Below, in pieces: positions 1,216 through 58,790 of a DNA stretch of 64,000 nucleotides (within the stretch, counting starts at the first letter, position 1; the number at the start of each line of letters is the position of its first letter). Source of the DNA: a bacterium (GTDB lineage Bacteria; Bacteroidota; Ignavibacteria; Kapaibacteriales; UBA2268). Below the pieces are notes generated by a model, which worked only from the letters and a program-made list of their open reading frames with translations, was not told where the DNA came from and searched no databases. The stretch covers positions 319-64,318 of the forward strand of contig JBAXXL010000023.1 of assembly GCA_037127915.1 (NCBI GenBank), in the 5' to 3' direction. The position numbers and the translations under genes are program-made.

Positions 1216-1250
1216 GAATATCACCGCGAAGACGCAAAGAAATTCTGTAG

Positions 1251-1276
1251 AGACGACCCACCGGGTCGTCTTTTTT
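1251..1276 (+). terminator. Rho-independent terminator of tyrS (AGACGACCC-acc-GGGTCGTCT plus T6), preceded by CTGTAG
   Basis: Perfect 9-bp stem followed by TTTTTT, 36 nt after the tyrS stop. Forms the 3' module of the family-A repeat (Z motif CACCGCGAAGACGC at 1222-1249). Confidence 0.7.
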
Positions 1277-11679: not shown

Positions 11680-11689
11680 TGCATTCAAT

Positions 11690-11870
11690 TAATCGAAGAT
11701 GGATTCTTCACTCCGCTCAGAAAGACGAACTTCTTATATATCAAGCAGATACCTGTTTTCGCAGGTATGACGGCTTGCAATACCCCATTTTTCAAAGGGG
11801 GCTTGGGGGTTTTCTTCTCTTCTCATTTTCAACTTTCAATTTTCAATTTTCAATTAATTTTCACTAAGTT
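11690..11870 (-). repeat. Family-A modular intergenic repeat copy (inverted orientation; X and Y modules)
   Basis: The reverse complement contains GAGTGAAGAATCCATCTTCGATTAATTGAAT and AATTGAAAATTGAAAATTGAAAGTTGAAAATGAGAAGA, matching copies at 28540, 30300 and 57727. The two short ORFs called here (11628.., 11653..) are spurious. Confidence 0.6.
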
Positions 11871-11907: not shown

Positions 11908-14634
11908 ATGAAAAGTTTTTTGATTATTTTGTGTTGTCTATTTGTCAACATAACTTTATATTCTCAAGGCTCTTCGCTTGATGATATAGTACCGAAACCA
12001 AAATTAGCTTATTACAAAACTTACAGTGCTATGTTTGGTATAAATAATAATACTGTCATTGTATTGAATAGCGAGAATCCTCAGTATTCAGCGGCTTATT
12101 TTCTTAACAAAAAGTTGAAAGAACGATACGTTATCGATACCAGTAAAATTTATCTCGACATGCCACCTGATAATTATGCAAATGTGATATATTTGGGTGT
12201 ATGCGATAGTAAAATAAACGATATGCTATCAAATGACTACGACCAGCCTTATAAAGTTAATAAAGATACACCGGGAAAAGAAGGTTATATTTTAGATGTA
12301 ATACCGGTGCGAATACTGATAAACGCAAGTGACGGCGAAGGTCTAATTAACGCGATTAGAACATTCACGCAAACACTTCTTCCCGGCGATGCTACGACAT
12401 TTGTTCGAGCATATCGCATAATAGATGTCCCGGATTACTCAAGACGCTGGGTTTACTTCCCTACAAATTTCTTAGTAGGTGCTAATACCACTGCCGCTAA
12501 ATCACAATGGAAACAATGGGCGGATTGGAAAATAAATGCCGTAAACCTGACCGATTATAAATTTGATTTTATTAGTACTCAACCGAAACGATACTTCGAT
12601 TCGCTAAGTTCTACTAATAAATTCGCAAAAGCGAACTTTTTGAATATAATTCCATCGACTATGTCTTGGGGATATTCGAACGGCATGATGTTTTTCGATC
12701 CGAATTTTGCAACCGGTTTGCCGGTAAATTTACAGAAATTTGTTATCAAAGCCGATACTGCTGAAATGGTTCCAACAGTAAAAACAACTTTGCCAAACGG
12801 CGATTTTGAAAATTATACAGGAAATAATTTCCCGGGATTTTTGTTTATTGATGGAGCTGGAACGCAAAGCTTTGCAGACAATTCAATCTTTAAGACCGGT
12901 AAAACTTCAATAAGGTTTGAGAATTTTGATGGTTCAAACGCGCGGGTTTGCTATCGTACTAAAGTCAGTCCTTTCAAAGAATATCTAATTTCCGGTTGGG
13001 TAAAAACCGAAAATGCTTCACCGGCTGGCGATATACGGCTAACAGTATTGAATAATAAAGGACAAACGTTGAATTATGCCAATTTGAATGTACCCACCAC
13101 AACTGACGGTTGGAAAAAAATTGATCTCATAGTAAATTCCTTATTAGGAGATACGATGACCGTTTATTTGGGCTTATGGGGAGCTGAGTCAGGTAAAATT
13201 TGGTGGGATGACCTGAAGGTAGAAGAAGCCGCTTTTGTGAATTTGATAAGACGTGAGGGAACACCTTTGAATGTAAACCATCAATATTTGGATGTTGTGA
13301 TTCGCGAAGGAATAGATTATGATACACTTGTGGATAAAAAACTCGGTGCCGCGGCGGGTTGGTTTGGTGAATTTGACACATATCACAAACCGCCGACATT
13401 GAAAATAAAAAATGATGGTATGCTGAAAAATGGCGATACTGTTTTAGCATCGTATTATCACGCTATCACGGTTTATGATGGACAGGTTATGGTTACTATG
13501 TCTGACGATAATCTTTATAAACAAGTGGATAGGGAGTTTCGGCTTTTAGATAGCGTATTGAAGGCAGAAACGTATTTTATGAATCACGACGAATTGCGGG
13601 TAATGAATTGGGATTACGGTGACCAAAGCCGAGGAATATCAGCAAAAGAAATATTAGCGGATAATGTGCACAAATCAATAGATATAATACACAAATACAA
13701 TCCCGAAGCCGATGTATGGGATTGGTCCGATATGTTCGATAATTTTCACAACGCGACTAAGAATTACTATTTAGTAAATGGTGATTTAACTGGTGTAGCG
13801 GATTTGATTCCGAATTCAATGGGCATAGTTAATTGGAATTCAGGTAAGTTATCGAACAGCACTGATTTCTTTGCCGGAAAAGGTTTTAGGCAAATATCTG
13901 CGCCATATTACGATACAGACCAAAATGATATAAGGATATGGAAAGAAAAAACTCAAGGCATTGCCAATTTCGAAGGAATGATGTACACTACTTGGTCACG
14001 AAATTACAATTATGTGAAACATTTTGCCGAATATGGATGGAACCACGCGCCTTATATAACGCATATTCCTCTTTGGGGGATTGAACCCAATAGAAAGCTG
14101 AGCTTCGATGTGCAGATTATCGGTGATGATATGGACAACGGTTGGAAACTTGCAACTGCTAAATTATACTACAGAACCGATGCGAAAGGAAACTTCGTCG
14201 CTAAGAATTTGCATCTTGTTAATAACGCGGCAAATTTAGAAATTGATTTAACAAATGACAATGCATATTTAGAATATTATATCGAAGCTACTGACAATCG
14301 CGGGTGGACTAAGCGCAATCCATTGGAAGCGGATAGATATTACACCCTTGGGACAACGACAAGTGTAAAAGAAGACAATATGAGCCAAGAGTTGCTTATA
14401 TCACCAAATCCGGCAGGAGATTATATTGATATAGAGTTATCAGCAATCAACCCCAAGCTTAAACGTGGGGTTGATGAAACACAAAAAATCTATATTTATA
14501 ATGTTTTAGGAGAAATGGTCTTATCTGTAGGGACAGATCGCGACCTGTCCGCTCGGATAGATATTTCATCATTGTCTAAAGGGCTATATATGGTAAAATA
14601 TGGTCAAAATACTGCTAGGTTTCTGAAAATATAG
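11908..14634 (+). CDS. Large secreted protein with T9SS C-terminal sorting domain (function unknown)
   Basis: 908 aa. Signal peptide. The sorting domain (SPNPAGDYIDIELSAINPKLKRGVDE...LSVGTDRDLSARIDISSLSKGLYMV) is paralogous to that of 49900..51294. Confidence 0.65.
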   Translation: MKSFLIILCCLFVNITLYSQGSSLDDIVPKPKLAYYKTYSAMFGINNNTVIVLNSENPQYSAAYFLNKKLKERYVIDTSKIYLDMPPDNYANVIYLGVCDSKINDMLSNDYDQPYKVNKDTPGKEGYILDVIPVRILINASDGEGLINAIRTFTQTLLPGDATTFVRAYRIIDVPDYSRRWVYFPTNFLVGANTTAAKSQWKQWADWKINAVNLTDYKFDFISTQPKRYFDSLSSTNKFAKANFLNIIPSTMSWGYSNGMMFFDPNFATGLPVNLQKFVIKADTAEMVPTVKTTLPNGDFENYTGNNFPGFLFIDGAGTQSFADNSIFKTGKTSIRFENFDGSNARVCYRTKVSPFKEYLISGWVKTENASPAGDIRLTVLNNKGQTLNYANLNVPTTTDGWKKIDLIVNSLLGDTMTVYLGLWGAESGKIWWDDLKVEEAAFVNLIRREGTPLNVNHQYLDVVIREGIDYDTLVDKKLGAAAGWFGEFDTYHKPPTLKIKNDGMLKNGDTVLASYYHAITVYDGQVMVTMSDDNLYKQVDREFRLLDSVLKAETYFMNHDELRVMNWDYGDQSRGISAKEILADNVHKSIDIIHKYNPEADVWDWSDMFDNFHNATKNYYLVNGDLTGVADLIPNSMGIVNWNSGKLSNSTDFFAGKGFRQISAPYYDTDQNDIRIWKEKTQGIANFEGMMYTTWSRNYNYVKHFAEYGWNHAPYITHIPLWGIEPNRKLSFDVQIIGDDMDNGWKLATAKLYYRTDAKGNFVAKNLHLVNNAANLEIDLTNDNAYLEYYIEATDNRGWTKRNPLEADRYYTLGTTTSVKEDNMSQELLISPNPAGDYIDIELSAINPKLKRGVDETQKIYIYNVLGEMVLSVGTDRDLSARIDISSLSKGLYMVKYGQNTARFLKI

Positions 14635-14643
14635 GCATAAGTA

Positions 14644-14676
14644 AACCTTCCGCAGGTTTGAAACCTGCGGAAGGTT
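14644..14676 (+). terminator. Perfect 15-bp stem hairpin (AACCTTCCGCAGGTT-tga-AACCTGCGGAAGGTT) just after the stop of 11908..14634
   Basis: Seen directly. Starts 10 nt after the stop codon. The following tract is A-rich rather than T-rich, so it could act for either strand or as a structural element. Confidence 0.5.
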
Positions 14677-14788
14677 ATAAAAAACAAAATAATTATCAAT
14701 GATAAATTATTAATTAATAATGCGAAGAGAAGAAGAATTCACCGCAAAGACGCAGAGATGCTAAGAATCATTAGAGGATTAAAAGAAT

Positions 14789-14840
14789 GCCGGTCATCTC
14801 GACTTCGCTAGATGACCGGCTCTTTTCTTCTCATTTTTAT
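14789..14840 (+). terminator. GCCGGTCATCT hairpin plus T-rich tract (terminator-like)
   Basis: Perfect 11-bp stem (GCCGGTCATCT / AGATGACCGGC), 10-nt loop, followed by TCTTTTCTTCTCATTTTT. Shares the GCCGGTCA stem core with the hairpin at 36219. Confidence 0.5.
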
Positions 14841-14867
14841 TTTTCAAATTGTTTATATTTTTCTTAA

Positions 14868-15058
14868 AAACCTTATTTCCAGTACAACCTTAGTAGAAAA
14901 ATATTATTTCGGTGTATCTTCCTAACCTTATTACCTTATCTAGAATTTATCTTTTTCTGATAAAATTTTAAAACAATTCCAATTATATTTTTATAAGGTT
15001 GTAAAATCTGACTTTACATTGCTTTTTGCTACTAAGGTTATATGTTAAATAAGGTTAT
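14868..15058. repeat. AACCTTA-heptamer cluster element with 11-bp terminal inverted repeats (AACCTTAGTAG / CTACTAAGGTT)
   Basis: Six AACCTTA/TAAGGTT heptamers. Outer inverted repeats at 14886-14896 and 15029-15039. Copies at 29398-29530 and 30478-30611. Confidence 0.55.
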
Positions 15059-15122
15059 TTTATTGTTTGTCAATTATAATTTCCAATTGCTAAAGGTGGA
15101 TTCTTCGCTTTTCAACTATCAA

Positions 15123-24646: not shown

Positions 24647-27600
24647 ATGAAAAATTATATAATACTTACGATATTAGCTTTGTTTTCGTTGACTACAGTC
24701 TCCGCGCAGAACTACTTTATTGAAAACAAGGGACAATGGACGGACGAGGTTTTATTTAAAAACCAATCCGCCGGAAATACTACGTGGATAACGAAAAGTT
24801 CGGTAGTATTCGATTATGCGCAATATTCAGAGATTTCAGAAAATGAATTTTCAGCCACGGGGCAGGTAATTAAAATGGAATTTTTGAATTCTAATTTAAA
24901 TACCGAATATTCTGGGAAAAAAAAATTGAGCGCTTACCATAATTATTTTATCGGTAACAATCAAAATAAATGGAAATCCAAAGTCGCGCTTTATGAAGAT
25001 GCCGTTCTGACAAATGTTTATGAAGGGATTGATTTGAAATTTTACTGGGATGAAGGAACTATTAGATATGATTTCATCGTTGGTCCAAAGTCCAACCCCA
25101 ATCAAATCAAACTGAAATTCAGCGGACAAGATGATATAAGCATCAGCAAAGATAGCGAATTATGCTTAACAACCCGATTCGGTGAAATAAAGCATACGAA
25201 GCTATTGGTTTATCAGATGGTTAATGGTCAGAAGACAGCAATAAAATCCGCTTTTGTTTCCCTTGCCGATAATACATTCAAATTTGAAATTGGCGCTTAT
25301 GATAAATCCCGAGAGTTGGTTATAGATCCCTTAATATATTCTACTTACATTGGTACATCCGATAACGACCGCGCATTCGAAATGACGTTGGCTCCTGACG
25401 GTAAACCAATTATTGTTGGTCTGTCTTGGAATTCATCCTATCCTACCAGTAGCGGTGCATATCAAAAAACGGTAAAAGGTAATTCCGACGGAATTTTGAC
25501 CAAAATGAATGATGATTGTACTGCCGTCTTATTTTCCACGTTTTATGGCGGTTCCCAATGGGAAGAGCCGCGTGGTATCGATTATGACACCGAAGGGAAC
25601 ATTTATATCGCCGGTGAAACTATGTCAACAGATTTTCCGGTTTCATCTATGGCTTATCAAAAAACTGCCGGTGGTAACAACCAATCCGATGCCTTTGTTT
25701 TAAAATTTTCGTCTGATGGCAGTCAACTTATTTTTTCCACTTATTTAGGAACCGCTCAAGCTGACCAAGCCAAAGATTTAAAAATTGACCCAAACGGTTT
25801 TGTATTTGTAATTGGTGAAGCACGGTCTTCGGCTTTTCCAATAACGGCTAATGCCGTTCAAAAAACTTATAGCGGCGGTCCGGTTGACGGATTCTTGACA
25901 GTTTTTTCACCTGATGGAAAGGACTTAGTGTATTCCACTTTCATAGGCGGAACGGGTGACGACTTTCCGCGTAAAATACTGTTAGACGGCGATTTCCTAT
26001 ATATTGTTGGACATACACGATCAACAGATTTTCCGGTTACTGCAAATGCTTATCAAAAAACTATAGGCGGTAATCGTGACGCTTTTTTGATTAAGTACCG
26101 AGGTCAAGGGACAGAGACTTTATTTTCAACTTTTATAGGCGGTAGTTTGGATGATAGTGGAATTGGAATGTGTTTTGATGCCAATAAAAATATAATTTTC
26201 ACAGGTAATACATTTTCTACAAATTATCCGGTCACTAACGATGCTGTTCAAAAAACTCTCGCCGGTGATGATGATGTGATGGTAACAAAGTTCAATCCGG
26301 CAGGAAATCTGATATATTCTACTTTTATAGGTGGTAAAGCAAGCGATAGAGCTAACGATATTCGGTGCGACGAATTTGGTAATTATTACCTGACCGGTAT
26401 GACTAAATCAAATAATTACCCTACAACTTTGAAAGCATTACAAAAAACTTATATAAGCAAAGAAGATGTATTGGTTACTAAGCTCAATCCTAATAATCCG
26501 AGTTTACTTTATTCAACTTATTTAGCAGGGAATAACGAAGATTGGGGACGTAGTATTGCTTGTTATGGAAATACAGTAATTGTTACGGGATATACAAGCA
26601 GTAGTGATTTTTTGATAAGTGATAATGCTTATAAGAAGACATTCAGCGGTAATAGAGACATTTTTCTCACGAAATTCTCGCCCGACGAAGGAACATTGGA
26701 TAAACCTATATTAGTTAATCCAGTAAAAGGCGCGGTTGATGTTATTATTCAGCCAACGCTGATTTGGGAAAAAGTAGATTACGCTGACGCTTATACTGTA
26801 ATAGTTGCCAAAGACATTGATTTGACAAATAAGGTATTTTCTCAAACCGGTATTACAACCCTACAGAAAAAAATAGATACTGAATTGGAATCGAATAAAA
26901 AATATTATTGGGCGGTTACAGCAAAAGCTGGAGCTGTGGTTGGTCCACAGTCCGATGTTTATTCATTTACAACTGAAGTAAATCTATCCGTGCCGACTTT
27001 AATCTCACCTCCAGATAAAGCGGATGATGTTGTATTAACACCAAAATTTACTTGGTCTCAAGAACCCAATACCGATAATTATCATTTACGTCTGCTTAAT
27101 TCAAATAATCCGGATGATATTATTTTCGAAAAACTATTTCCTACCGAAACAGAGTACGTTTCTCCTATTACATTAGAAGAAGGTAAAGAATATTTCTGGA
27201 CAGTCAGAACAATTTATAATGGTGAAATAGGACCTTGGGCTTCGATTTCTTCATTCACAACCAAATCAACCATCAAAGCACCAATTTTGGTCTATCCGGC
27301 GGATAAAGATAAATATGTTCAGTCAAAAAACACTCTATTTTATTGGAAAAAAGAAAAAACAGCAACGCAATACGAAATTTATATTTATGAAGAAGCTGAT
27401 TTAAAATCTCCGATTAAAACCGCTCTAATAAGCGATACATTTTATATTAACAATTCTGATTTGGAATACGGAAAGATTTATTATTGGACAGTTCGCTCGA
27501 AATCGTCCAACCAGACCAGCTCTTGGACAGAAATGTTTAGCTTCCAAACTGAAGTAGTTATGGAAAAACCTATTTTAATTTCTCCCGAAAATTTCACTAA

Positions 27601-28396
27601 AGATTTGACTATTTATCCAAAATTTGTTTGGCACAGGGTTAATTACGCAGTTAAATACAAGCTCGAGATTATGATTCCCGATGCTTTAGTTTATCAAGCA
27701 GAAACAAGCGATACAAGTTTTCAAATGCTCGAGCCGTTGGAAAACGGTGCGGGATTATATTGGCAAGTGAGAGCTATCGGTGTTGATGAAACAGAACAAT
27801 TGTCCGATACTTGGGAATTTAGTACAATCGATGCCTTAATTGCACCAACATTGGTCAGCCCAGACGAAATGGCTCAAATTGACCCCGCAACAGCAACATT
27901 CGTTTGGAATAAAGTTCCACATTATGATGGATTATACAATATTCAGATTTACAAAAGACCCGGCTCTGTCTTGGTTATTGACGAGATTGTAGAAGATACG
28001 GTTTATACTGTTGATGAGCCTCTGCTGTACAACCAAGGTTATTATTGGCAGGTGTCTTATTTCCGTGGTGACGAAACGAGTCCTTGGTCAATAGTCAGAC
28101 GTTTCACAACTTATCCGACTTCAGTAAAAGAAAGCCCACTCTTCAGCTCAATCAAACTTTATCCTAATCCAACGGGCAGTAAAGCTGAACTAAGTATAAA
28201 CTATTCTGAAACCTGCGACGCGAAAATCTTTATCAGCACAGTGGGTGGAAAAATCATTAAAACGGATGTTATCAGATTATTAATTGGCGAAACGCGATAT
28301 GAAATTGACACGGAACACTTAACTTCGGGATCATATTATATTACAATTACCACACCTGCGGGGTATATTACAAGGGAATTAGTAGTTGTTAAATAG
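24647..28396 (+). CDS. Giant T9SS cargo protein: SBBP beta-propeller repeats, Fn3-like YYW repeats and a sorting domain
   Basis: 1249 aa. Repeats of the YSTY.GG..D...DxxGNxYxxGxTxSxDFPxTxxAYQ type (SBBP/PF06739-like). C-terminal half has the same ~95-aa YYW repeats as 15123 and 32238. Sorting domain about 88% identical to that of 32238..36194. Confidence 0.7.
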   Translation: MKNYIILTILALFSLTTVSAQNYFIENKGQWTDEVLFKNQSAGNTTWITKSSVVFDYAQYSEISENEFSATGQVIKMEFLNSNLNTEYSGKKKLSAYHNYFIGNNQNKWKSKVALYEDAVLTNVYEGIDLKFYWDEGTIRYDFIVGPKSNPNQIKLKFSGQDDISISKDSELCLTTRFGEIKHTKLLVYQMVNGQKTAIKSAFVSLADNTFKFEIGAYDKSRELVIDPLIYSTYIGTSDNDRAFEMTLAPDGKPIIVGLSWNSSYPTSSGAYQKTVKGNSDGILTKMNDDCTAVLFSTFYGGSQWEEPRGIDYDTEGNIYIAGETMSTDFPVSSMAYQKTAGGNNQSDAFVLKFSSDGSQLIFSTYLGTAQADQAKDLKIDPNGFVFVIGEARSSAFPITANAVQKTYSGGPVDGFLTVFSPDGKDLVYSTFIGGTGDDFPRKILLDGDFLYIVGHTRSTDFPVTANAYQKTIGGNRDAFLIKYRGQGTETLFSTFIGGSLDDSGIGMCFDANKNIIFTGNTFSTNYPVTNDAVQKTLAGDDDVMVTKFNPAGNLIYSTFIGGKASDRANDIRCDEFGNYYLTGMTKSNNYPTTLKALQKTYISKEDVLVTKLNPNNPSLLYSTYLAGNNEDWGRSIACYGNTVIVTGYTSSSDFLISDNAYKKTFSGNRDIFLTKFSPDEGTLDKPILVNPVKGAVDVIIQPTLIWEKVDYADAYTVIVAKDIDLTNKVFSQTGITTLQKKIDTELESNKKYYWAVTAKAGAVVGPQSDVYSFTTEVNLSVPTLISPPDKADDVVLTPKFTWSQEPNTDNYHLRLLNSNNPDDIIFEKLFPTETEYVSPITLEEGKEYFWTVRTIYNGEIGPWASISSFTTKSTIKAPILVYPADKDKYVQSKNTLFYWKKEKTATQYEIYIYEEADLKSPIKTALISDTFYINNSDLEYGKIYYWTVRSKSSNQTSSWTEMFSFQTEVVMEKPILISPENFTKDLTIYPKFVWHRVNYAVKYKLEIMIPDALVYQAETSDTSFQMLEPLENGAGLYWQVRAIGVDETEQLSDTWEFSTIDALIAPTLVSPDEMAQIDPATATFVWNKVPHYDGLYNIQIYKRPGSVLVIDEIVEDTVYTVDEPLLYNQGYYWQVSYFRGDETSPWSIVRRFTTYPTSVKESPLFSSIKLYPNPTGSKAELSINYSETCDAKIFISTVGGKIIKTDVIRLLIGETRYEIDTEHLTSGSYYITITTPAGYITRELVVVK

Positions 28397-28434
28397 TTTT
28401 AAATTTTGAATGTTGAGTTTTGAATGTAGGGGCA

Positions 28435-28465
28435 GAAAATTTTCTGCCCTTTCTTTATCAGAATT
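28435..28465 (+). terminator. GTAG-preceded hairpin terminator (TGTAG GGGCAGAAAA|TTTTCTGCCC plus T-rich)
   Basis: Perfect 20-nt palindrome immediately after the 24647..28396 stop. The 5' TGTAG flank is the one seen on the other family-A hairpins. Confidence 0.7.
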
Positions 28466-28519
28466 AGAATGAAGGGATTAGAAGATTATAGGATAGATTG
28501 TCATACCCGAGGGATCGGG

Positions 28520-28640
28520 AATCCATCTTCGAATAATTGAAAATAGTAAGTTGAAAATGAGGAGAAAGAGAAGATAAACCCCGTAATTCGTAATTTGAAA
28601 TTCGTAATTGTTGGTCAAAAAGGCTATCCTTTTTTGGGAT
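28520..28640. repeat. Family-A repeat copy (W-X-Y modules) ending in GGCTATCC...GGATAGCC hairpin
   Basis: GGGAATCCATCTTCGAATAATTGAAAAT...GTTGAAAATGAGGAGAAAGAGAAGATAAA...CGTAATTCGTAATT. The hairpin at 28611-28640 reads as a T-tailed terminator on the minus strand for the DUF4160/DUF2442 operon. Confidence 0.6.
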
Positions 28641-29164: not shown

Positions 29165-29324
29165 ACTATTTTCCTATTATTATTAACTTTGGCAATATTG
29201 CAAATAAATTACTAATTTTATATATGATTAAACGAATAATCGTAATTCATATTTTGATTATGGATATCATAGTCCAAATTGGATAAATGTTTTTGTTTTG
29301 AAAATAAAAAAGGCTAAACTTATT

Positions 29325-29640
29325 GGGGATGTGCTGTAAGCTTGCTCCGAAAGAGCTAAATCTCAATAACCGCGGGCAAAACCTGTGGGAAGTCCTAAAA
29401 CCTTATTCCCTTAATTAACCTTAGTAGAAAAATGACCGATTTGTCCGCAAACCTTATTACCTTATTGGAAAACGAAAATAAGCGAATAAGGTTAGATGAG
29501 TATATATTTCAGCTTTCCTACTAAGGTTTGAATAGAAAATAATGAACAAAATATTTTTTGTAGAGACGTTGCATGCAACGTCCCTACAAACAGTATTTTA
29601 ATAAAATCAAAAAGGCTATCCTTTTTGGGGGATAGCCTAA
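29325..29640. repeat. ~300-bp repeat B1 (includes AACCTTA cluster, GTAG hairpin 29559-29588 and GGCTATCC terminator hairpin 29613-29637)
   Basis: About 85-90% identical to 30413-30720 by eye. Internal perfect palindrome GACGTTGCATGCAACGTC preceded by TTTGTAGA. Confidence 0.65.
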
Positions 29641-30224: not shown

Positions 30225-30410
30225 GCTTCATTTTCTGAATTAGGGTTCAAAGATTAAAAGATGATAGGAGGGTTTATCATTCCCTAGGCAACGTGAAACC
30301 ATCTTCGAATTATTGAAAATGGGAAATGGAAAGTTGAAAATGAGAAGAAAGAGAAGATAAATCCCGTAATTCGTAATTGATTGGTCAAAAAGGCTATCCT
30401 TTTTTTGAGG
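30225..30410. repeat. Family-A repeat copy (W-X-Y, then GTAATTCGTAATTGATTGG and a partial GGCTATCC hairpin)
   Basis: TTTTCTGAATTAGGGTTCAAAGATTAAAAGATGATAGG...GTGAAACCATCTTCGAATTATTGAAAAT...GAAAGTTGAAAATGAGAAGAAAGAGAAGATAAATCCCGTAATTCGTAATTGATTGG. Confidence 0.6.
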
Positions 30411-30412
30411 AT

Positions 30413-30720
30413 TTGCTCTAAGTTTTTTCTGAAAGAGCTAAATCTCAATGACTGCGGGTGAAACCGAAGAAAATCCTAAAACCTTATTTCCTTTATTAAC
30501 CTTAGTAGAAATATGACCGCTTTATCCGCAAACCTTATTACCTTATTGGAAAACGAAAATAAGCTAATTAGGTTTAAGGCAAAAAAAAATCACCTTTCAT
30601 ACTAAGGTTTGAATAGAAAATAATGAGAAAAATATTTTTGTAGAGAAATAACATGCTACGTCTCTATTTGCCGAATTTACAATAAAATCAAAAAGGGCTA
30701 TCCTTTGTGGGGATAGCCTG
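30413..30720. repeat. ~300-bp repeat B2 (AACCTTA cluster 30478-30611, degenerate GTAG hairpin, GGCTATCC terminator hairpin 30691-30719)
   Basis: Direct repeat of 29325-29640. The hairpin reads as a T-tailed terminator on the minus strand for the lipoprotein operon 30746..32067. Confidence 0.65.
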
Positions 30721-36218: not shown

Positions 36219-36260
36219 AGCCGGTCAAAGAGCGTAATTGCATTGACCGGCTTTTTTTCT
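36219..36260 (+). terminator. Hairpin terminator (AGCCGGTCAA ... TTGACCGGCT plus T7) after 32238..36194
   Basis: Perfect 10-bp stem with 15-nt loop, then TTTTTTT. Followed by a W-module (CTGAATTAGGATTGAATGATTAGAATATT) homologous to 28462-28500 and 30243-30280. Confidence 0.65.
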
Positions 36261-36418
36261 GAATTAGGATTGAATGATTAGAATATTGGTTGTAGACAAC
36301 AGAATGGGTTGTCACGCTTTTGGTGATTTTTAATATAGCAGTCTGAAACTAAATTAGATTTGTCTAACTCAATTAAAAATTGTAATTTTACTTTTTTAAT
36401 AAATCTACAACTTAACTA

Positions 36419-47832: not shown

Positions 47833-48938
47833 TGAGGGCTACACGAGCTTACATAAATTTGAAAAATTTAGAAGACAATATTGAGGCAATAAGAAAAGAA
47901 ATTCCCGAGTCTGAGATATTAACAGTTATAAAGGCTAATGCCTACGGTCATGGCGCGGTTGAAATCGCACGCGCTTTGCGCCGAATAAATATAAATTATA
48001 TTGGCGTAGCATTTCCTGAAGAAGGTGCCGCTCTAAGAGAGTCAGGGGATTTGGGTGAAATTGTTTGTATTGTCCCTTGTCGAAAAGATGATGTCTCAAT
48101 TTTACTGAATTATAATATTCAAACGGCGATATTCGATATTGATATTTTAAAATACTACTCCAATTATGCTATTGCAAACGGCAAGGTCATAACTGCGCAT
48201 TTGTTTATTAATACCGGTATGAACCGCGATGGTATCCGTTGGGACAAAGCTGTTGAGTTTATGGAGTTGGCAAAAAGCCACAAGGGTGTCAAAATTATCG
48301 GTTTAATGACTCATTATGCTACGTCGGATTTTAGAGAACGTAGTTTTGCTTTGGGGCAACTGAAAGATTTTAATACCGCTTATGAAGAATTAAAGAAAGC
48401 CGGTTTTAGGTTTCAATTTGTCCACTCCGCGAATAGCGGTGCTATTGCCAATCTGCCGGAATCCTACTACAATATGATACGCATGGGAATCAGCGTTTAT
48501 GGACTAATGCCTGAAGAAGAACTTTTAGACCAAATACCGCTTAAACCTGTATTGGAATTAAAAAGCGAAGTACTGGCTATTCAAGAGGTGAAATCGGGGG
48601 AAACGGTAGGGTATTCGTTTCAGTATTTTGCCCGGAATGATACTCGCATTGCAATCGTTCCAATCGGCTATGGTGATGGATATAGACGTTCACTTGGTAA
48701 CAAAGCGCAATGCTTAATTAACGGTAAACGATATTCGGTCGTAGGGTCAGTATGTATGGACCAAATATTTGTTGAAATCTTCCAAGATAAAATTAAAGTT
48801 GGTGATGAAGTTGTTTTAATCGGCAAACAAGGAAATGAATTTATTAGTGTATATGAATTAGCCAATTTTGCCGGGACAATTCCTTATGAAATAACCACCG
48901 GAATTTCGTCAAGAGTACCAAGAATTATAGTGGACTAA
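47832..48938 (+). CDS. alr: Alanine racemase
   Basis: 368 aa. PLP-lysine motif VIKANAYGHGAVE. C-terminal Alr beta-domain (YGDGYRR, SVCMDQIFV). The start codon overlaps the stop of the OmpA-family gene (ATGA). Confidence 0.9.
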   Translation: MRATRAYINLKNLEDNIEAIRKEIPESEILTVIKANAYGHGAVEIARALRRININYIGVAFPEEGAALRESGDLGEIVCIVPCRKDDVSILLNYNIQTAIFDIDILKYYSNYAIANGKVITAHLFINTGMNRDGIRWDKAVEFMELAKSHKGVKIIGLMTHYATSDFRERSFALGQLKDFNTAYEELKKAGFRFQFVHSANSGAIANLPESYYNMIRMGISVYGLMPEEELLDQIPLKPVLELKSEVLAIQEVKSGETVGYSFQYFARNDTRIAIVPIGYGDGYRRSLGNKAQCLINGKRYSVVGSVCMDQIFVEIFQDKIKVGDEVVLIGKQGNEFISVYELANFAGTIPYEITTGISSRVPRIIVD

Positions 48939-48946
48939 GCTGAATA

Positions 48947-49744
48947 ATGAAAATAAATGACGATAAATATTATAAGCAATACCAAGATTTGATCGGTGTA
49001 AATATTGATAATCTTATCAAGTCATTTGATTTTAACGAAGCAGAGACCGATTTAGGATATAAAACTCAGGCAAGTGCTGTATTTTCTTCGAATATCGAAG
49101 GAAATACCATTGATTTGAATTCATTTATGAATTATAAATTATCGCAGGAAAAATTTAAATCCCACAAAGAAATTCGGGAAATCGAAGATTTAGTTTCCGC
49201 TTATGAATTTGCTCAATCCAACCAACTTAATGAAAAGACATTTTTGCATTGTCATAAAATTTTCTCAAAAAATTTAGTTATCGAAAGCAAGCAAGGAAAG
49301 TATCGCACTGAGAAAGTCGGAGTTTTTGGTCAATCAGGACTTGTTTATTTAGCAGTGGAACCGGAATTTGTTCAAGAAGAAATGAAAGAGTTTTTCAAAG
49401 GTATAGCCGATTTACTAAAAATGAATTTATCAAATTCCGAAGTATTTTATTATGCCTCTCTGATTCATCTTAAATTTGTTCATATACATCCTTTTATGGA
49501 TGGGAATGGACGCGCCGCCCGATTAATTGAAAAATGGTTCATCTCTGAAAAGTTGGGTGAAAGATTTTGGAAACTTTTATCCGAAAAATATTATAAAGAG
49601 CATCAGGCGAAATATTATAATAATATCAATTTAGGTGTGAATTATTATGAGTTGAATTACGACAGATGCCTTCCCTTTTTGATGATGCTACCGCAAGCGA
49701 TGGATAATAGTTCGAAAAATACCAATAACTACTTAACAACCTAA
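48947..49744 (+). CDS. fic: Fic-family protein (class II, cis inhibitory motif)
   Basis: 265 aa. Fic active-site motif HPFMDGNGRAARL. N-terminal [ST]xxxE[GN] inhibitory motif SSNIEGN. Confidence 0.85.
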   Translation: MKINDDKYYKQYQDLIGVNIDNLIKSFDFNEAETDLGYKTQASAVFSSNIEGNTIDLNSFMNYKLSQEKFKSHKEIREIEDLVSAYEFAQSNQLNEKTFLHCHKIFSKNLVIESKQGKYRTEKVGVFGQSGLVYLAVEPEFVQEEMKEFFKGIADLLKMNLSNSEVFYYASLIHLKFVHIHPFMDGNGRAARLIEKWFISEKLGERFWKLLSEKYYKEHQAKYYNNINLGVNYYELNYDRCLPFLMMLPQAMDNSSKNTNNYLTT

Positions 49745-49899
49745 TGCTTAAGCGTAAGGTTGAAAAACATTATTCCTATTTAAATCTCAAATTATTCTTA
49801 TTAATAAAAAAAATCTTTGTGTAACGAAATTACAAAAAATGTGTATATAGACTAATACTTTATGAAAAAATAATTTTTTTATATTTTATTGGAGTATAT

Positions 49900-51294
49900 A
49901 TGAGATATTTATGGTCAATTTTGTTATTATTATGTCTTTCTCTGATAACTGTTGTAGCAAAAGAGAATGATAATCGGAATAAAACAAATCCCTTATTACA
50001 AGGGAATAAGGAATTACTGGACCAAGTCGTACTTTATTCAGCTAACGGTGATTCAACCAAAAGCATTTACGAATATGATGCTAATGGAAATTTAGCAACC
50101 ACTTTAACAAAAAAATGGCAAACAGAAAAGTGGGAAGATTCAAAAAAATATTCTTATACTTACAATCAAGACAATAAGCAGATATTACAGCTTGATGAAG
50201 AATTTAAAAATGATGCTTGGCAAAGTACACAACGTTCTACTATGACTTACGACGCTTATGGATTTTTATCACAAAATTTGATCGAAGTTTTCAAAAATGA
50301 TCAATGGATTAATCAAAGCCTCACCTCTTATGCAAACACTGAAAATGGAGATGTATTGTCTTACAGATTTGAAGTATGGTTGAATGATAAATGGGAACTC
50401 GCGCGGGCTCAAGATTATACTTATAATGAAAATGGTAAAAAGTCCAATTATACTGATGAGAGCTGGGAAGCGGGTCATTTGACAAGAAAGATGCGTACAA
50501 ATTACGGTTATGATGTAAAGGGAAATCAAATTACTGAAAGTCTTGAGATGTACGAAAATGAAGTGTGGACTGAAGTTTACCGTGCTAATTATACTTATGA
50601 TTCTGAAGGGAATAACACTCTGTATGTTTCCGAAAACCAGCAGGATGGCGAGTGGTCTTTTACAGAACGTAGAACTAGCGAATACGATTCCAAAGGTAAT
50701 ATGTTGTCGGAAAGAGATGAATGGTTTGATGGAACAAAATGGTTTTATTTTGCAAAATATACGTATACATTCAGTGAAAATAATCATGAACTTACATTTT
50801 TACAACAAAGTTATGACACAATTAATTTAGTTTGGGAAGATCATTATAGGAGAACTACTACCGAGAATGAGAAAGGCAATATTTCTTCTATTGTTTCTGA
50901 AGCTTGGGTAAGCGATAAATGGGTAAAAGACAATAATATGCTAGTTATTTTTGATAAAACGGGCAAAATGTTTACATATATTGGATGTAAAATTGAAGTT
51001 TCATATAAAGAGGTAAATGATGTTAAAGAAGAACCTGAACATCAAATAATACTTAGTTGTTCGCCTAATCCGGCAGGTGATTTTATAACGATAAGCGCGG
51101 GAGCAATCAACCCCATGCTTAAGCATGGGGTTGATGCCGCTACTGAAATCATTATCTATAATACTCTCGGCGAAAAAGTATTATCTGTAGGAACAGGTCG
51201 TGACCTGTCCGCACCGATTAATATTTCCGATTTACCAAAAGGTATGTATTTTATAAAGGTTGGAACTGAAACAACGAAATTTGTAAAGATGTAA
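49900..51294 (+). CDS. T9SS cargo protein with tandem YD/RHS-like repeats
   Basis: 464 aa. Signal peptide. ~25-aa periodic W.....Y.YD..GN units (YEYDANGN, YTYNENGK, YTYDSEGN, SEYDSKGN). Sorting domain SPNPAGDFITISAGAINPMLKHGVD...LSVGTGRDLSAPINISDLPKGMYFI. Confidence 0.65.
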   Translation: MRYLWSILLLLCLSLITVVAKENDNRNKTNPLLQGNKELLDQVVLYSANGDSTKSIYEYDANGNLATTLTKKWQTEKWEDSKKYSYTYNQDNKQILQLDEEFKNDAWQSTQRSTMTYDAYGFLSQNLIEVFKNDQWINQSLTSYANTENGDVLSYRFEVWLNDKWELARAQDYTYNENGKKSNYTDESWEAGHLTRKMRTNYGYDVKGNQITESLEMYENEVWTEVYRANYTYDSEGNNTLYVSENQQDGEWSFTERRTSEYDSKGNMLSERDEWFDGTKWFYFAKYTYTFSENNHELTFLQQSYDTINLVWEDHYRRTTTENEKGNISSIVSEAWVSDKWVKDNNMLVIFDKTGKMFTYIGCKIEVSYKEVNDVKEEPEHQIILSCSPNPAGDFITISAGAINPMLKHGVDAATEIIIYNTLGEKVLSVGTGRDLSAPINISDLPKGMYFIKVGTETTKFVKM

Positions 51295-51375: not shown

Positions 51376-51387
51376 ATACATTCTGAA

Positions 51388-51480
51388 CGCAGTGAAGAAT
51401 CCATCTTCTTGAATAGCCACGACTTTTTTTCCTCGGGTCAAGAGTTCCTCTTGACGCGGCGTAATTCGTAATTGATTGAT
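51388..51480. repeat. Family-A repeat copy (X module plus CGTAATTCGTAATTGATTGAT)
   Basis: CATTCTGAACGCAGTGAAGAATCCATCTTC and GCGTAATTCGTAATTGATTGATAATG. Direct repeat of 57716-57890, flanking the three-gene operon. Confidence 0.6.
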
Positions 51481-56427: not shown

Positions 56428-57444
56428 TTAAAAACTAAGACCTAATCTTAAAAAAACGGCGTTTGACAATCGGTATGGATTTAAATCCTGATTTTGCACA
56501 CATTCCGGCGGAGCAATCAACTCCGGTAGGGGCGTGTATATCCATCTGTATCCTAAATCGACACTTAAATCTATATGTTTTGTGATTGCAAATTCTTTAC
56601 CCAAACCCAGGTCCGCAAATGCACCTAACGGTTTGATATTTTTATCTTTATCCTTTTTTATGGTAATCAATCCGCCAAAGTCGGTGAAGAAAAACCAGGT
56701 GTTGCAACTTCTCATCGCACTACAACAATCCACAAAGGCATTTACATTGCTTGTGTAGCGCAAACGAATGGCGGCAGGTACAAAATACGAACCGTCCATG
56801 GGCCACAAACCGGTTAAAATACCAATTTTTGTTGACGAAGGAGTTTTGTCAAGCCAATAAAACAATTTGTCGAGAAATTTAAATCCCGTTATAGCCGATA
56901 TTTCTCCGCCTACAAGAATTTTGGAACCGCCATAGCCAAATCCAAAATCATCTTGAATATAAGTTGTGTCGGGATAGACGGTTTGATCAATCGCGTTCCA
57001 TTTTAAAGGATTTCTTCTAATACCGCCCATAGCTTTGATTTCCCATATTAATCCGCTTCTATCGCGAGAGCAGGAAAAGCAATCGGTTTGTCCGCGAATA
57101 GGTTCAATTACACTTGGTGTATTAATCCCATTTGCCATTGTAGTTATAACTTTAGTATTTATAGAATCAATTCTATAAATATTCATTTTAACATCGTAGA
57201 AAGCAAGAATTGGTTTATGACAGCTATCATAAACGACAGGTATGTAATTTGTCATAATTGAACTTAAAAATTCACCCTTATTACCTTGATTTTCCACCTT
57301 TTTTACAAATTCTATATTATATAAAGTATTTGATTTTACCTTTATATAATTTTTGTCCGGATATTCCTCTATTACCGTCTTACAAGAAGAAAGCACCAAT
57401 AATAGTGAAGTGAAACAAATAGAGACTTTTATGAAATTTACCAT
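56428..57444 (-). CDS. Lipoprotein / putative outer-membrane beta-barrel protein
   Basis: Start adjusted to MVNFIKVSICFTSLLLVLSSCKT (lipobox). C-terminal ...LRLGLSF ends in Phe, typical of outer-membrane beta-barrels. First gene of a three-gene minus-strand operon. Confidence 0.45.
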   Translation of the reverse strand: MVNFIKVSICFTSLLLVLSSCKTVIEEYPDKNYIKVKSNTLYNIEFVKKVENQGNKGEFLSSIMTNYIPVVYDSCHKPILAFYDVKMNIYRIDSINTKVITTMANGINTPSVIEPIRGQTDCFSCSRDRSGLIWEIKAMGGIRRNPLKWNAIDQTVYPDTTYIQDDFGFGYGGSKILVGGEISAITGFKFLDKLFYWLDKTPSSTKIGILTGLWPMDGSYFVPAAIRLRYTSNVNAFVDCCSAMRSCNTWFFFTDFGGLITIKKDKDKNIKPLGAFADLGLGKEFAITKHIDLSVDLGYRWIYTPLPELIAPPECVQNQDLNPYRLSNAVFLRLGLSF

Positions 57445-57707
57445 ACTTTTTTTGGGATAAAACATATTTTGAAAAATTATGATTCTCATATAATACACCT
57501 TTTTGTGATAAAAGAAACTCTGTGAGATGGGTTTTGTAAATAAATAATTGGCTCTGCACGATTTTTTAATTACTTACAAATCATCTAATATTTTCAACCC
57601 AAAAATAATTATATTTTTTGGAATAACAATTAGATTTTTAGTTATTATCTAAAATATTTTCGCTATTTATGACAAAGAGCCTAAAAAAATGGTAATTGTC
57701 AATAAAT

Positions 57708-57890
57708 GGGATCCGTCATTCTGAACGAAGTGAAGAATCCATCTTCAATTAATTAAAAATTGAAAGTTGAAAGTTGAAAATAAGAAGAAGAATTCACCGC
57801 AAAGACGCGGAGACGCGAAGAAATTGTTTTATCTGTAGGGACAGGTCGCGACCTGTCCACCTTTGCAACTCGTAATTCGTAATTGATTGA
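57708..57890. repeat. Family-A repeat, most complete copy (W-X-Y-Z, GTAG hairpin GGACAGGTCGCGACCTGTCC, CGTAATTCGTAATTGATTGAT)
   Basis: Perfect 20-nt palindrome at 57839-57858 with 5' flank GAAGAAATTGTTTTATCTGTAGG, shared with sorting-domain coding sequence at 51170-51210 and 14510-14550. Confidence 0.65.
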
Positions 57891-58017
57891 TGATTTTCTT
57901 CAATCCTGAAAGGATGGAAATATTGTAGAAAATGGAAATATACGGTGGCACTAACCCTGGAAAGGTGGTATAATAAAAATGACCTCTTTAGAGGTCATAT
58001 ATTTGTAGATATAGAAC

Positions 58018-58278
58018 TTATTTATAAGCATCTTTTCTATGTTTTACAGCAATAATATCTAAAATCATCTCAATATCCGATATTGAATACAATACTCTAT
58101 AATCGCCCACGCGTATTCTCCAGATATTATTCGTTCCTTGAAGCTTTTTGCATCCGTTAGGTCTTGGATTATGAATTAAAAGTTCAATTCTTTTCCAAAG
58201 CCTTTCGACAATTTGATTATCAAGAGATTCTATTTCACTAACAGCCGATTTTGAAAAGTTTATATTATAGCTTTTCAT
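58018..58278 (-). CDS. relE: Type II toxin, RelE/ParE family
   Basis: 86 aa. C-terminal WRIRVGDYRVLYSISDIEMILDIIAVKHRKDAYK matches the RelE/ParE core. Confidence 0.75.
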   Translation of the reverse strand: MKSYNINFSKSAVSEIESLDNQIVERLWKRIELLIHNPRPNGCKKLQGTNNIWRIRVGDYRVLYSISDIEMILDIIAVKHRKDAYK

Positions 58279-58462
58279 CCAATTTGCCTTGTTTTATCAA
58301 TTTATCTTTGACATCCTTAAGGCTTGTACGGGGCTCATTTTCACGCGATTTAGCAACTAATAAATCGTAGAAATCTTCCCAAATGCCCTTGTACTTTTTC
58401 AAATCAATAAGCACAGCTGTTTTATCGCCTTGTTCTGTTACAATATATTGAATGCCGTCCAT
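58265..58462 (-). CDS. Antitoxin (Phd/RelB-like) of the RelE module
   Basis: Start adjusted to MDGIQYIV. 14-nt overlap with the toxin gene. Small acidic protein upstream of relE. Confidence 0.55.
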   Translation of the reverse strand: MDGIQYIVTEQGDKTAVLIDLKKYKGIWEDFYDLLVAKSRENEPRTSLKDVKDKLIKQGKLDEKL

Positions 58463-58790
58463 TATATACCTTTTAAGCAAATTTATTATATGATTTTATA
58501 TATTTACAACGAATAAAAATAACGAATATTTGAAGATAATATAACGGCTAATTATAAATTATAAATGAGAAGAAGAAAAAACAATAAAAAGACCTAGGTT
58601 GAGGTCGAATGTTTGTAGAAAAATGCACCCCGTTTTTGAAAAACGACCCCAGCGTGGTCGTGTCTTTTTCTTTCTTGATTATTCCCGATTTTTCAAAGGA
58701 GTTTAGGGGCTTTCTCTTCTAGGGCGTATGCAATACGCCCCTACATTAACAATTTACAATTAACCATTATTGCTTCATACCCCACACCCC

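Follow-up and report, generated by a model that had tools for sequence, protein, structure and literature searches.

The short repeats crowded into positions 57708-57890, between a putative toxin-antitoxin operon and the next gene, raise the question of whether they form one element or several and how they came to lie together. The DNA is a stretch of 64,000 nt, referred to below as the window (contig JBAXXL010000023.1 of assembly GCA_037127915.1, positions 319 to 64,318), from a bacterium of the Kapaibacteriales (Bacteroidota), and has a GC content of 35%. A preliminary description had taken the region as one copy of a single modular family resembling bacterial interspersed mosaic elements (BIMEs) and repetitive extragenic palindromes (REPs), with modules W, X, Y and Z, a hairpin of variable sequence behind GTAG and a CGTAATT array. 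The sharing of these modules among several loci stands: all were found at or close to the places given, and each recurs above chance. The single family did not survive. The modules are separate repeat classes and not pieces of one element: X has the architecture of a REP of the CGTC type, Y, Z and CGTAATT are short tandem arrays, and the hairpins fall into at least five discrete families, with five families recurring exactly in unrelated contigs. The region probably belongs to a set of at least eight mosaic clusters in which very small repeats of independent classes lie adjacent or nested. We favor the view that the GTAG hairpins are REPs of the canonical long or double-foot type, usually perfect 20-nt palindromes.

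GTAG hairpins and their dispersal

Two REP superfamilies are recognized in prokaryotes, one tagged with GTAG and one with CGTC (Di Nocera 2013, PMC3733652). The structural rule asks for GTAG or GTGG at a distance of 0-2 nt 5′ of the foot of the hairpin, full pairing over a basal stem of 7-20 nt, a loop of 2-5 nt, and G or C at three or more of the first four positions of the stem (Quentin 2018, PMC6006769). In the window this rule picks out 5 loci with 6 hits in all, while 60 dinucleotide-preserving shuffles average 0.07. The compliant GTAG tags are at 1247, 28426, 29560 (29587 on the other strand), 57835 and 58744(-), with stems of 8-9 bp and loops of 2-3 nt if the center of a palindrome is counted as loop. 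The copies at 14527, 51187, 30640 and 36292, which are decayed or weak, fail the rule. Among all 256 four-letter tags located 0-2 nt 5′ of GC-footed perfect hairpins, GTAG ranks second; AAAA comes first because of terminator tails. The REP-like character proposed in the preliminary description thus agrees with the published structural definition (PMC6006769, PMC3733652). All four hairpins quoted there, each after TGTAG, are present, the second (placed at 28440) running from 28430 to 28449.

The differences in stem sequence between loci mark distinct REP families and not drift of one copy. Family a has GTAG at 1247-1250 and the hairpin AGACGACCC acc GGGTCGTCT at 1251-1271, followed by five T; together with a preceding module Z (1222-1240) it forms a unit at 1222-1271 (+), 32 nt past the tyrS stop codon. 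Family b, the REP of the 57708 cluster, consists of GTAG and a perfect 20-nt palindrome with arms GGACAGGTCG and CGACCTGTCC (57835-57858, +; palindrome 57839-57858). Family c (28426-28449, +) has the arms GGGCAGAAAA and TTTTCTGCCC at 28430-28449 and lies, with a T-rich tail, 30 nt past the stop codon of the open reading frame (ORF) 24647-28396. Family d (29560-29587) is the symmetric double-foot element GTAGAGACGTTGCATGCAACGTCCCTAC, with stems GACGTTGCA and TGCAACGTC at 29565 and a degenerate copy at 30640-30667. Family e (58722-58744, -) reads GTAG GGGCGTAT tgc ATACGCCC. The last element, the degenerate copy at 30640 and the coding-sequence copies of the 57835 unit at 14527 and 51187 add to the loci of the preliminary description. 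Family b thus has three copies in the 64 kb, family d two and the other families one each; the relatives L096 and L097 (loci outside the window are numbered with the prefix L) carry about two REPs per contig. In the pooled REPs GTAG and a GGRCR foot are conserved and five inner stem positions vary while remaining complementary. Both the complementarity of differing stems and the conservation of the GTAG flank, as proposed earlier, hold outside the window.

No inverted pair of REPs of the same family, as in BIMEs and REPINs (REP doublets forming hairpins), was found within 150 nt at any locus of the window, and the BIME architecture suggested earlier does not apply. The only symmetric units in the window are collapsed double-foot palindromes (GTAG...CTAC). 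This form, at 29560-29587 in the window, is also present at position 441 of L096, in L122, L222 and L223, and in IMG/VR copies of families b, c and d. The double-foot REP also forms the end of a non-coding unit, about 300 nt long, that is duplicated with 87% identity (29320-29640 and 30400-30720) and has a third, diverged copy at 14860-15060. This unit contains the internal inverted repeats ACCTTAGTAGAAA / TACTAAGGT and AACCTTATTACCTTAT / ATAAGGTTA, and a TAnnTTTG box resembling the Bacteroidetes −7 promoter element stands immediately before GTAG at 30630. It may encode a small RNA or have a regulatory role.

The same hairpins occur at non-homologous sites and in other genomes. Family c is found 34 nt past the serS stop codon in L096 (5503), sharing the flank TTTTGAAT with the window copy, and also within the C-terminal sorting domain of the type IX secretion system (Por_Secre_tail, hereafter T9SS domain) encoded in L223. 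Family d, intergenic in the window, appears as a perfect double foot within the L222 T9SS domain. Exact copies of family b are present in L097 and six IMG/VR contigs; for the other types the IMG/VR contigs with exact matches number 1 (c), 3 (d), 26 (e) and 9 (the L096 type), with unrelated flanks. REP cores are identical across contigs with GC contents from 0.34 to 0.69. One phage-like contig, L228 (IMGVR_UViG_3300029959_001594, GC 0.60), has seven exact copies of GTAGGGGCAATTCATGAATTGCCCCTAC in 14.8 kb, mostly in short intergenic gaps, where Z-like and heptamer arrays surround them. Phage-like contigs may act as carriers of the REPs. L001 and L220, independent short-read (Logan) contigs from the same organism, both end at 58712, beside the family e REP, consistent with a high-copy repeat that breaks assembly.

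The position of most copies directly 3′ of genes could also mean that the hairpins are ordinary intrinsic terminators or stabilizers of 3′ untranslated regions that evolved in place, with GTAG as a by-product, for example of a TAG stop codon or a promoter-box remnant. The element at 28428-28451 was indeed flagged as a terminator, with a GC-rich stem-loop and a T run, and the L096 copy at 5503 is likewise T-tailed. The earlier statement that copies double as terminators therefore holds for 28428; for the 1251 hairpin, with its 9-bp stem and T5, it is plausible by eye only, and the terminator scan did not flag it. A gene in L097 ends on a stop codon that comes from the GTAG. However, T tracts are missing at 57839, at 58722 and at all copies in T9SS domains, and ordinary terminators of the window (14644, 28620, 58800 and 60310) lack GTAG. 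Evolution in place cannot account for identical sequences of 24-28 nt at non-homologous sites and in unrelated genomes, and we regard an origin as plain terminators as very unlikely. The tag-derived stop codon was seen twice, in L097 (271-298) and L098 (251-278), where GTAG gives the TAG of a T9SS domain gene (AAGATGTAGGGGTTGGGtctCCCAACCC). Stop codons from the tag are also known for other REPs (Di Nocera, PMC3733652).

The other repeat classes of the clusters

Module X (GTGAAGAATCCATCTTC) is exact at 11695(-), 51392 and 57730 and has a three-mismatch copy at 15092(-); the window holds 5 matches against 0.15 expected. In the 57708 cluster the module occupies 57714-57746 (+), with the tag CGTC at 57714-57717, the hairpin ATTCT-GA-AC-GAA-GT-GA-AGAAT at 57718-57738 and the tail CCA at 57739-57741, followed by TCTTC. 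The features that define the CGTC type, namely a CGTC, TGTC or CCTC tag, AT at the start of the stem and CCA as a 3-nt tail, were found at 57714 (CGTC) and 28499 (TGTC) and in L008, L014, L043 and L088. By this architecture, with a total length of about 30 nt, X fits a CGTC-type REP as far as the sequence can tell. It departs from the norm of 8-9 bp and a loop of 4-5 nt in its usual stem, which has nine positions, two tandem G.A mismatches and a 3-nt GAA triloop. A clean form, ATTCCCGA ctcga TCGGGAAT with an 8-bp stem and a 5-nt loop, is found in L043, and stem variants are compensated both there (ATTCCCGA...TCGGGAAT) and at 28503 (ACCCGA...TCGGG). A genome scan with a 17-mer over 596 Gb returned 94 hits, mostly inside genes, where about 70 are expected by chance, and copies were accepted only if the upstream gtcattctga was present. 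True copies by this standard occur in Kapaibacterium, Chlorobiaceae, Chloroherpetonaceae and Desulfovibrio assemblies. The CGTC superfamily has been reported in Chlorobi and Bacteroidetes and has no known transposase (PMC3733652).

The remaining modules are built differently. Y (57747-57791, +) is an A-rich heptamer array, (TTGAAAR)n, with the 3′ end GAGAAGAAG; it matches at 11818(-), 28535, 30318 and 57758, where no matches are expected. W, likewise with none expected, is at 30233 and 36257 and has a diverged copy at about 28452. The unit of the CGTAATT array, CGTAATTCGTAATTG, is found at 28582, 28596, 30365, 51460 and 57871, thus at four loci, against 0.39 expected, and in the cluster it forms (CGTAATT)2 at 57871-57891 (+), followed by GATTGAT. 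Y and the CGTAATT array were seen only in the window and in Kapaibacterium-like loci. A long heptamer tandem array, (CAGCTCA)n, lies at the contig end of the relative L097 (1150-1261); it resembles the cyanobacterial short tandemly repeated repetitive (STRR) arrays and agrees with the many heptamer arrays (Y, CGTAATT) of this lineage.

Z (CACCGCAAAGACGCAGAGA), with matches at 1222, 14740 and 57795 and none expected, consists in the cluster (57794-57822, +) of about three octamer units of the GCxxAGAC type (TCACCGCAAAGACGCGGAGACGCGAAG). It is not lineage-specific. As TCACCGCRAAGACGCNRAGA it was found in at least 120 metagenome contigs (L100-L219) with GC contents from 0.32 to 0.71. Among the contigs listed it generally makes up one arm of a long inverted repeat with about three GCxxAGAN units, and the unit variants AAAG, GAAG, AGAG and CAAG vary in concert inside one element. 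GTAG is not enriched across the Z-bearing metagenome loci listed (17 of 458 hairpins, about chance level), and the association of GTAG with Z is genome-specific. Z hairpins from 17 loci matched no Rfam family, and a literature search returned no paper with the Z sequence.

The modules are combined differently at each locus. An inverted cluster at 11684-11860 (-) contains X (11684-11727), other hairpins and Y (11818-11860). On the plus strand, 28499-28610 has a variant X (TGTC-ATACCCGA-ggga-TCGGGAAT-CCA), Y (28535-28565) and (CGTAATT)3 (28582-28610), and 30233-30379 has W (30233-30259), a remnant of X, Y (30318-30348) and (CGTAATT)2 (30365-30379). At 51381-51474 (+), X (51381-51408) is followed by an unrelated hairpin (51434-51458) and (CGTAATT)2 (51460-51474). 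W at 36257-36283 precedes a weak GTAG hairpin (GTAG at 36292, stem of 5-6 bp) that fails the REP rule (36257-36317, +). A copy of Z at 14733-14760 (+) is part of a convergent intergenic mosaic at 14635-15122, and most copies lie in convergent or unidirectional intergenic regions. A repeated syntax of an octamer or heptamer array, a GTAG REP and another heptamer array was found in the window, in L228 (GC 0.60), where it reads CACCGCAGAGAACGCGTAGAACGCAGAGAACGC, REP, CGTAAATCCTGTGAATCCTGTC, and in L251. The array 3′ of the REPs in L251 and L228, GTAATTx or CGTAAATCCT, is analogous to the CGTAATT array of the window. REPs also sit nested between Z and its reverse complement.

All copies on the plus strand of the window keep the order W, X, Y, Z, hairpin, CGTAATT. 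This would be expected if the cluster were a single miniature inverted-repeat transposable element (MITE) with that master order, the shorter loci being deletion derivatives and Y and the CGTAATT array serving as imperfect terminal inverted repeats (TIRs). When the array is reverse-complemented, Y matches it at about 17 of 23 positions, and the two pair in predicted folds of the minus-strand RNA (z = -3.7) and the plus-strand DNA (z = -2.1). The pairing is weak in copies C and D, though, no target-site duplications were seen, and the ends are inconsistent. The order of the modules is not fixed: in the relative L012 it is (AATTACG)n-Z-X. Moreover, X, Z and the REPs each occur alone, also in other phyla and without the remaining modules. 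A single MITE is quite unlikely in this light.

The same minus-strand fold (z = -3.7), together with the position between the toxin-antitoxin operon and the following gene, could point to a structured small RNA or a cis-regulatory RNA encoded by the cluster. This is highly improbable, since the module content varies by locus and leaves no common structure conserved. A terminator-like hairpin on the minus strand (57998-57979) separates the cluster from the upstream operon, and Rfam gave no match in the window at the gathering score, with only sub-threshold chance hits at E <= 1 around the clusters; the RNA reading finds no Rfam match at gathering threshold or E <= 1. We return to the mosaic of independent repeat classes, which is neither a BIME or REPIN as strictly defined, nor a MITE, nor a member of an Rfam family.

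TyrS and an M16 peptidase are encoded in the window, along with many T9SS domain proteins (Pfam on 20 ORFs). On the minus strand at 58020-58465, two small overlapping ORFs look, by eye from the translation, like a putative antitoxin and a RelE/ParE-type toxin. A 1.8-kb stretch of the window is 82% identical to L088, a contig of the Candidatus Kapaibacterium metagenome-assembled genome (MAG) GCA_038206725.1, which also has the nearest T9SS domain homologs, and both matches mark the source as Kapaibacterium-like; the gene content of L088 departs from that of the window immediately past position 48938. The protein of ORF 56428-57498 matched no record, and no pair of filled and empty sites was obtained for the 57708 cluster.

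Palindromes inside T9SS domains

The preliminary description had called the repeats intergenic, which holds for most copies, located just 3′ of genes, but not for two copies of family b that lie in frame inside T9SS domains. These are at 14527-14550 (+) in ORF 11908-14634, where the element is translated as ..SVGTDRDLS.. and has one arm mismatch, and at 51187-51210 (+) in ORF 49900-51294, with ..SVGTGRDLS.. and two arm mismatches. The whole 40-nt unit around 57835 is repeated in these coding sequences, at 14511-14550 and 51171-51210. The 16 nt that precede the intergenic GTAG (57819-57834, +) are identical at 14 of 16 positions to the domain-coding flank 14511-14526, which encodes ..GEMVLS; the intergenic copy thus has 16 nt of a 5′ flank like that of the domain, and nothing of the 3′ flank.

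These observations allow the reverse direction. The GTAG palindromes could be native to the T9SS domain. In that case the intergenic copies would be fragments of gene 3′ ends, spread through duplication, recombination or decay among paralogs, with no dedicated transposase involved. The window has many T9SS domain proteins that could serve as source, and 57819-57858 shares 37 of 40 nt with coding sequence 14511-14550, including the 16 nt that encode the strand GE(K/M)VLSV. The 5′ flank of intergenic family c is also domain-like (GTTTTGAATGTAG, compared with GTTTTGTCTGTAG in L223), and 41% of 153 related domains bear such a palindrome. Yet the similarity breaks off abruptly where the palindrome ends on its 3′ side and, on the 5′ side, about 16 nt before GTAG, the rest of the domain being missing. 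The same REPs occur in phage-like and in high-GC contigs without a nearby T9SS domain, and homologs conserve the palindromy rather than the peptide. An origin within the domain is unlikely. For the 57835 copy itself the evidence is ambiguous between a flank copied along with the REP and a recombined gene fragment.

The conservation of palindromy can be followed in aligned homologs. At the same columns of the domain the window has the arms GGACAGGTCG and CGACCTGTCC and L096 has GGGCAATTCA and TGAATTGCCC, with four arm differences, all compensated, and no indel. This alignment is unbiased in that the members were retrieved via protein homology, and the flanking coding sequence is about 75% identical. 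The palindrome was verified in the DNA of six genes, namely the two of the window (14527 and 51187) and those in L096, L097, L222 and L223. A profile built from six domains and run against 1.84 billion representatives gave the 153 relatives mentioned above. In 63 of them (41%) the last 62 residues contain an octapeptide starting with V that, back-translated, can spell GTAG and then a perfect 20-nt palindrome, and a further 31 reach nine of ten pairs. At control V[GEADV] sites elsewhere in the same proteins ten of ten pairs were reached by only 4 of 599 (0.7%). More than 25 families can be deduced in this way, including VGAIHELP, VGTGRDLS, VETRHAVS, VGAENFLP, VETLHATS and VGANGRSP. The loop has equal length with or without a recognizable REP; therefore, REPs substitute for the loop and do not lengthen it. 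Some of the deduced palindromes form pairs that differ solely at the center, with CATG instead of CTAG or CGCG instead of CTAG. One candidate, VVAGSNLP of L099, back-translates to a perfect palindrome whereas its DNA is not one; composition-matched shuffles do so in 4% of cases, and exaptation at the protein level is not claimed.

A second, untagged palindrome family (ATCAACCCCATGCTTAAGCATGGGGTTGAT) occupies the first loop of the domain, again in frame (..AINPMLKHGVD..), at 14446-14475 and 51106-51135. The former (+, ORF 11908-14634) is a 30-nt palindrome with arms ATCAACCCCA and TGGGGTTGAT and is translated as ..INPKLKRGVD..; the latter (+, ORF 49900-51294) is a perfect 14+2+14 palindrome. 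It is present in four homologs, while L097 has a gap of 27 nt, and a diverged copy at 49735-49760 overlaps the stop codon of a Fic gene. INPTLKRGVD and INPTVNRRVD are frequent peptide variants in the 153 domains. Other loop variants resemble translated hairpins without GTAG that recur as intergenic terminators (tails P0005-P0153). One of these, ESIHPMTSSHRM (CATCCGATGAC..GTCATCGGATG), is found as it occurs after genes in L096, L222 and L088; others are LKPSEGFEPSEGS, to be compared with the hairpin at window 14644-14676, and TPSLLGNATPPTEGN.

We tentatively propose, as a possibility with the chances somewhat against it, that GTAG REPs have an in-frame slot reserved for them in one loop of the T9SS domain in Kapaibacterium and similar Ignavibacteria-like Bacteroidota. 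In that case more than 25 families of the same length would interchange without indels between conserved flanks, and a second loop would take another palindrome family. The palindromes would be shared exactly with intergenic mosaics, phage-like contigs and genomes with GC contents of 0.34-0.69.

Mechanism, comparison with known repeats and significance

The mechanism should account for identical hairpins at unrelated sites, tandem arrays next to them and the in-frame copies. We consider it rather probable that these are single-strand hairpin elements of the REP class, dispersed in trans by a RAYT-type (REP-associated tyrosine transposase) HUH/Y1 nuclease. We infer the enzyme, with the RAYT recognition put forward in the preliminary description, as well as the direction of movement and any function. 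The palindromes would fold to hairpins on single-stranded DNA, and a RAYT-class nuclease (TnpA_REP, probably of subclass 2.4 or 2.6) encoded elsewhere in the genome would recognize the foot and the 5′ GTAG. It would copy or move the hairpin in trans, with a preference for other palindromes and the 3′ ends of transcription units. The tandem arrays could expand through replication slippage. Settled hairpins may be neutral, or, at 3′ ends, act as terminators or mRNA stabilizers. Insertions just inside genes would persist only where the protein tolerates them, and the accumulation in two loops of the T9SS domain, which is cleaved off, is proposed to arise because only tolerated in-gene insertions survive.

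Several observations weigh against this mechanism. A search for the RAYT gene, as suggested earlier, was negative: neither Pfam on 20 ORFs nor an HUH...Y motif scan showed a Y1/HUH transposase in the window, a motif scan alone showed none in 408 kb of REP-bearing IMG/VR loci, and no tnpA_REP gene was seen within 1 kb of a copy in the DNA sampled. The HUH...Y motif scan over 221 loci gave a sole Y1_Tnp, in the Chlorobiaceae locus L076; this gene is flanked by unrelated TIRs and has no bearing on the source genome. Inverted doublets of one REP family (REPINs), the proposed mobile unit, are absent from the window. Recombination or the copying of a gene fragment would explain the 5′ flank of 57835 no less well than transposition. 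REPs normally count as species-specific, yet the cores are identical over GC 0.34-0.69. Finally, the covariation is partly circular: 95% of the cells in the pooled REP alignment are paired and 8 of 10 pairs have changed on both sides, compared with at most 42% paired cells in slid controls, but the sequences had been picked as hairpins.

The L076 gene (6665-7270, MAG JAFGER010000082) is RAYT-like, with the motifs YLPHFD...NHVH...YIHENP and a Pfam E value of 3e-8. It lies between inverted copies of GCCTGGGAGCGCCATGCTCCAGCTTGGCA, and the same 8 kb holds an inverted pair of X (CGTC-type) and one GTAG REP.

Comparison with known systems shows both similarities and differences. The TnpA_REP enzymes of subclass 2.4 in Cyanobacteria and Bacteroidetes are associated with canonical long REPs with three G-C foot pairs, double-foot REPs and REP insertions that keep the reading frame (PMC6006769). 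The hairpins described here share the GTAG 0-1 nt 5′ of a GC-footed hairpin, the three G-C foot and the double-foot variants. They also have in common with these GTAG-tagged REPs the presence of several families per genome, the position 3′ of genes, TAG used as stop codon, genic copies in frame, and nesting in palindromes, as also described for REPs within longer palindromes (Di Nocera, PMC3733652). Unlike in those REPs, no RAYT and no inverted doublets were seen in the sampled DNA, most copies are perfect 20-nt palindromes with no designed loop, identical cores span GC 0.34-0.69, and in-frame copies are concentrated in one slot of one domain. With the BIMEs of E. coli and the REPINs of Pseudomonas the clusters share the interleaving of intergenic REPs with other short motifs; here, in contrast, the partners are different repeat classes and tandem arrays, and not an inverted REP of the same family. 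The Rickettsia palindromic elements (RPEs), of which the RPE-4 and RPE-6 types are CGTC REPs (PMC3733652), are likewise inserted in frame in coding genes and translated. RPEs enter many unrelated genes at varied sites, whereas here different families occupy one fixed slot of equal length in one domain family.

Literature searches with the exact sequences of X, Z and four REP cores, and on REPs in T9SS domains or Kapabacteria, returned nothing. Small dispersed repeats and heptamer STRR arrays are reportedly known from Cyanobacteria through work of Elhai et al. in 2008 and Mazel et al. in 1990. The present clusters presumably resemble them in that unrelated repeats of about 21-28 nt stand at the same position in longer conserved contexts, with heptamer arrays adjoining. 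The phylum is different, and the likeness is one of description.

The kind of REP is itself already known. Apparently unreported in the literature searched are the lineage, the joint occurrence of the two superfamilies with tandem arrays in a syntax that recurs, the exact cores across GC contents and the fixed T9SS slot. In the survey of 2013, Bacteroidetes and Chlorobi had CGTC repeats only (Di Nocera, PMC3733652), whereas GTAG and CGTC superfamilies occur together in these Kapaibacteriaceae (Bacteroidota), for which no report was found in the literature searched. The repeats also have practical consequences. They interrupt short-read assemblies, yield spurious small ORFs and swell families of hypothetical proteins with peptides such as VGAIHELPL, VGTGRDLS and VETLHATSL.

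If the T9SS slot is true, it would imply a cassette-like exchange of one REP for another at a fixed GTAG site, by RAYT or by hairpin-templated conversion. Alternatively, it would imply a role at the DNA or RNA level of a perfect palindrome that genes for secreted proteins carry about 90 nt ahead of their stop codon. REP cores would also be constrained across phyla instead of being species-specific. If the slot is both real and general, it would place dozens of REP families in one isogenic context, a natural system in which recognition, exchange and protein tolerance can be compared, and it could reveal whether a palindrome near the 3′ end of mRNAs for secreted proteins is functional.

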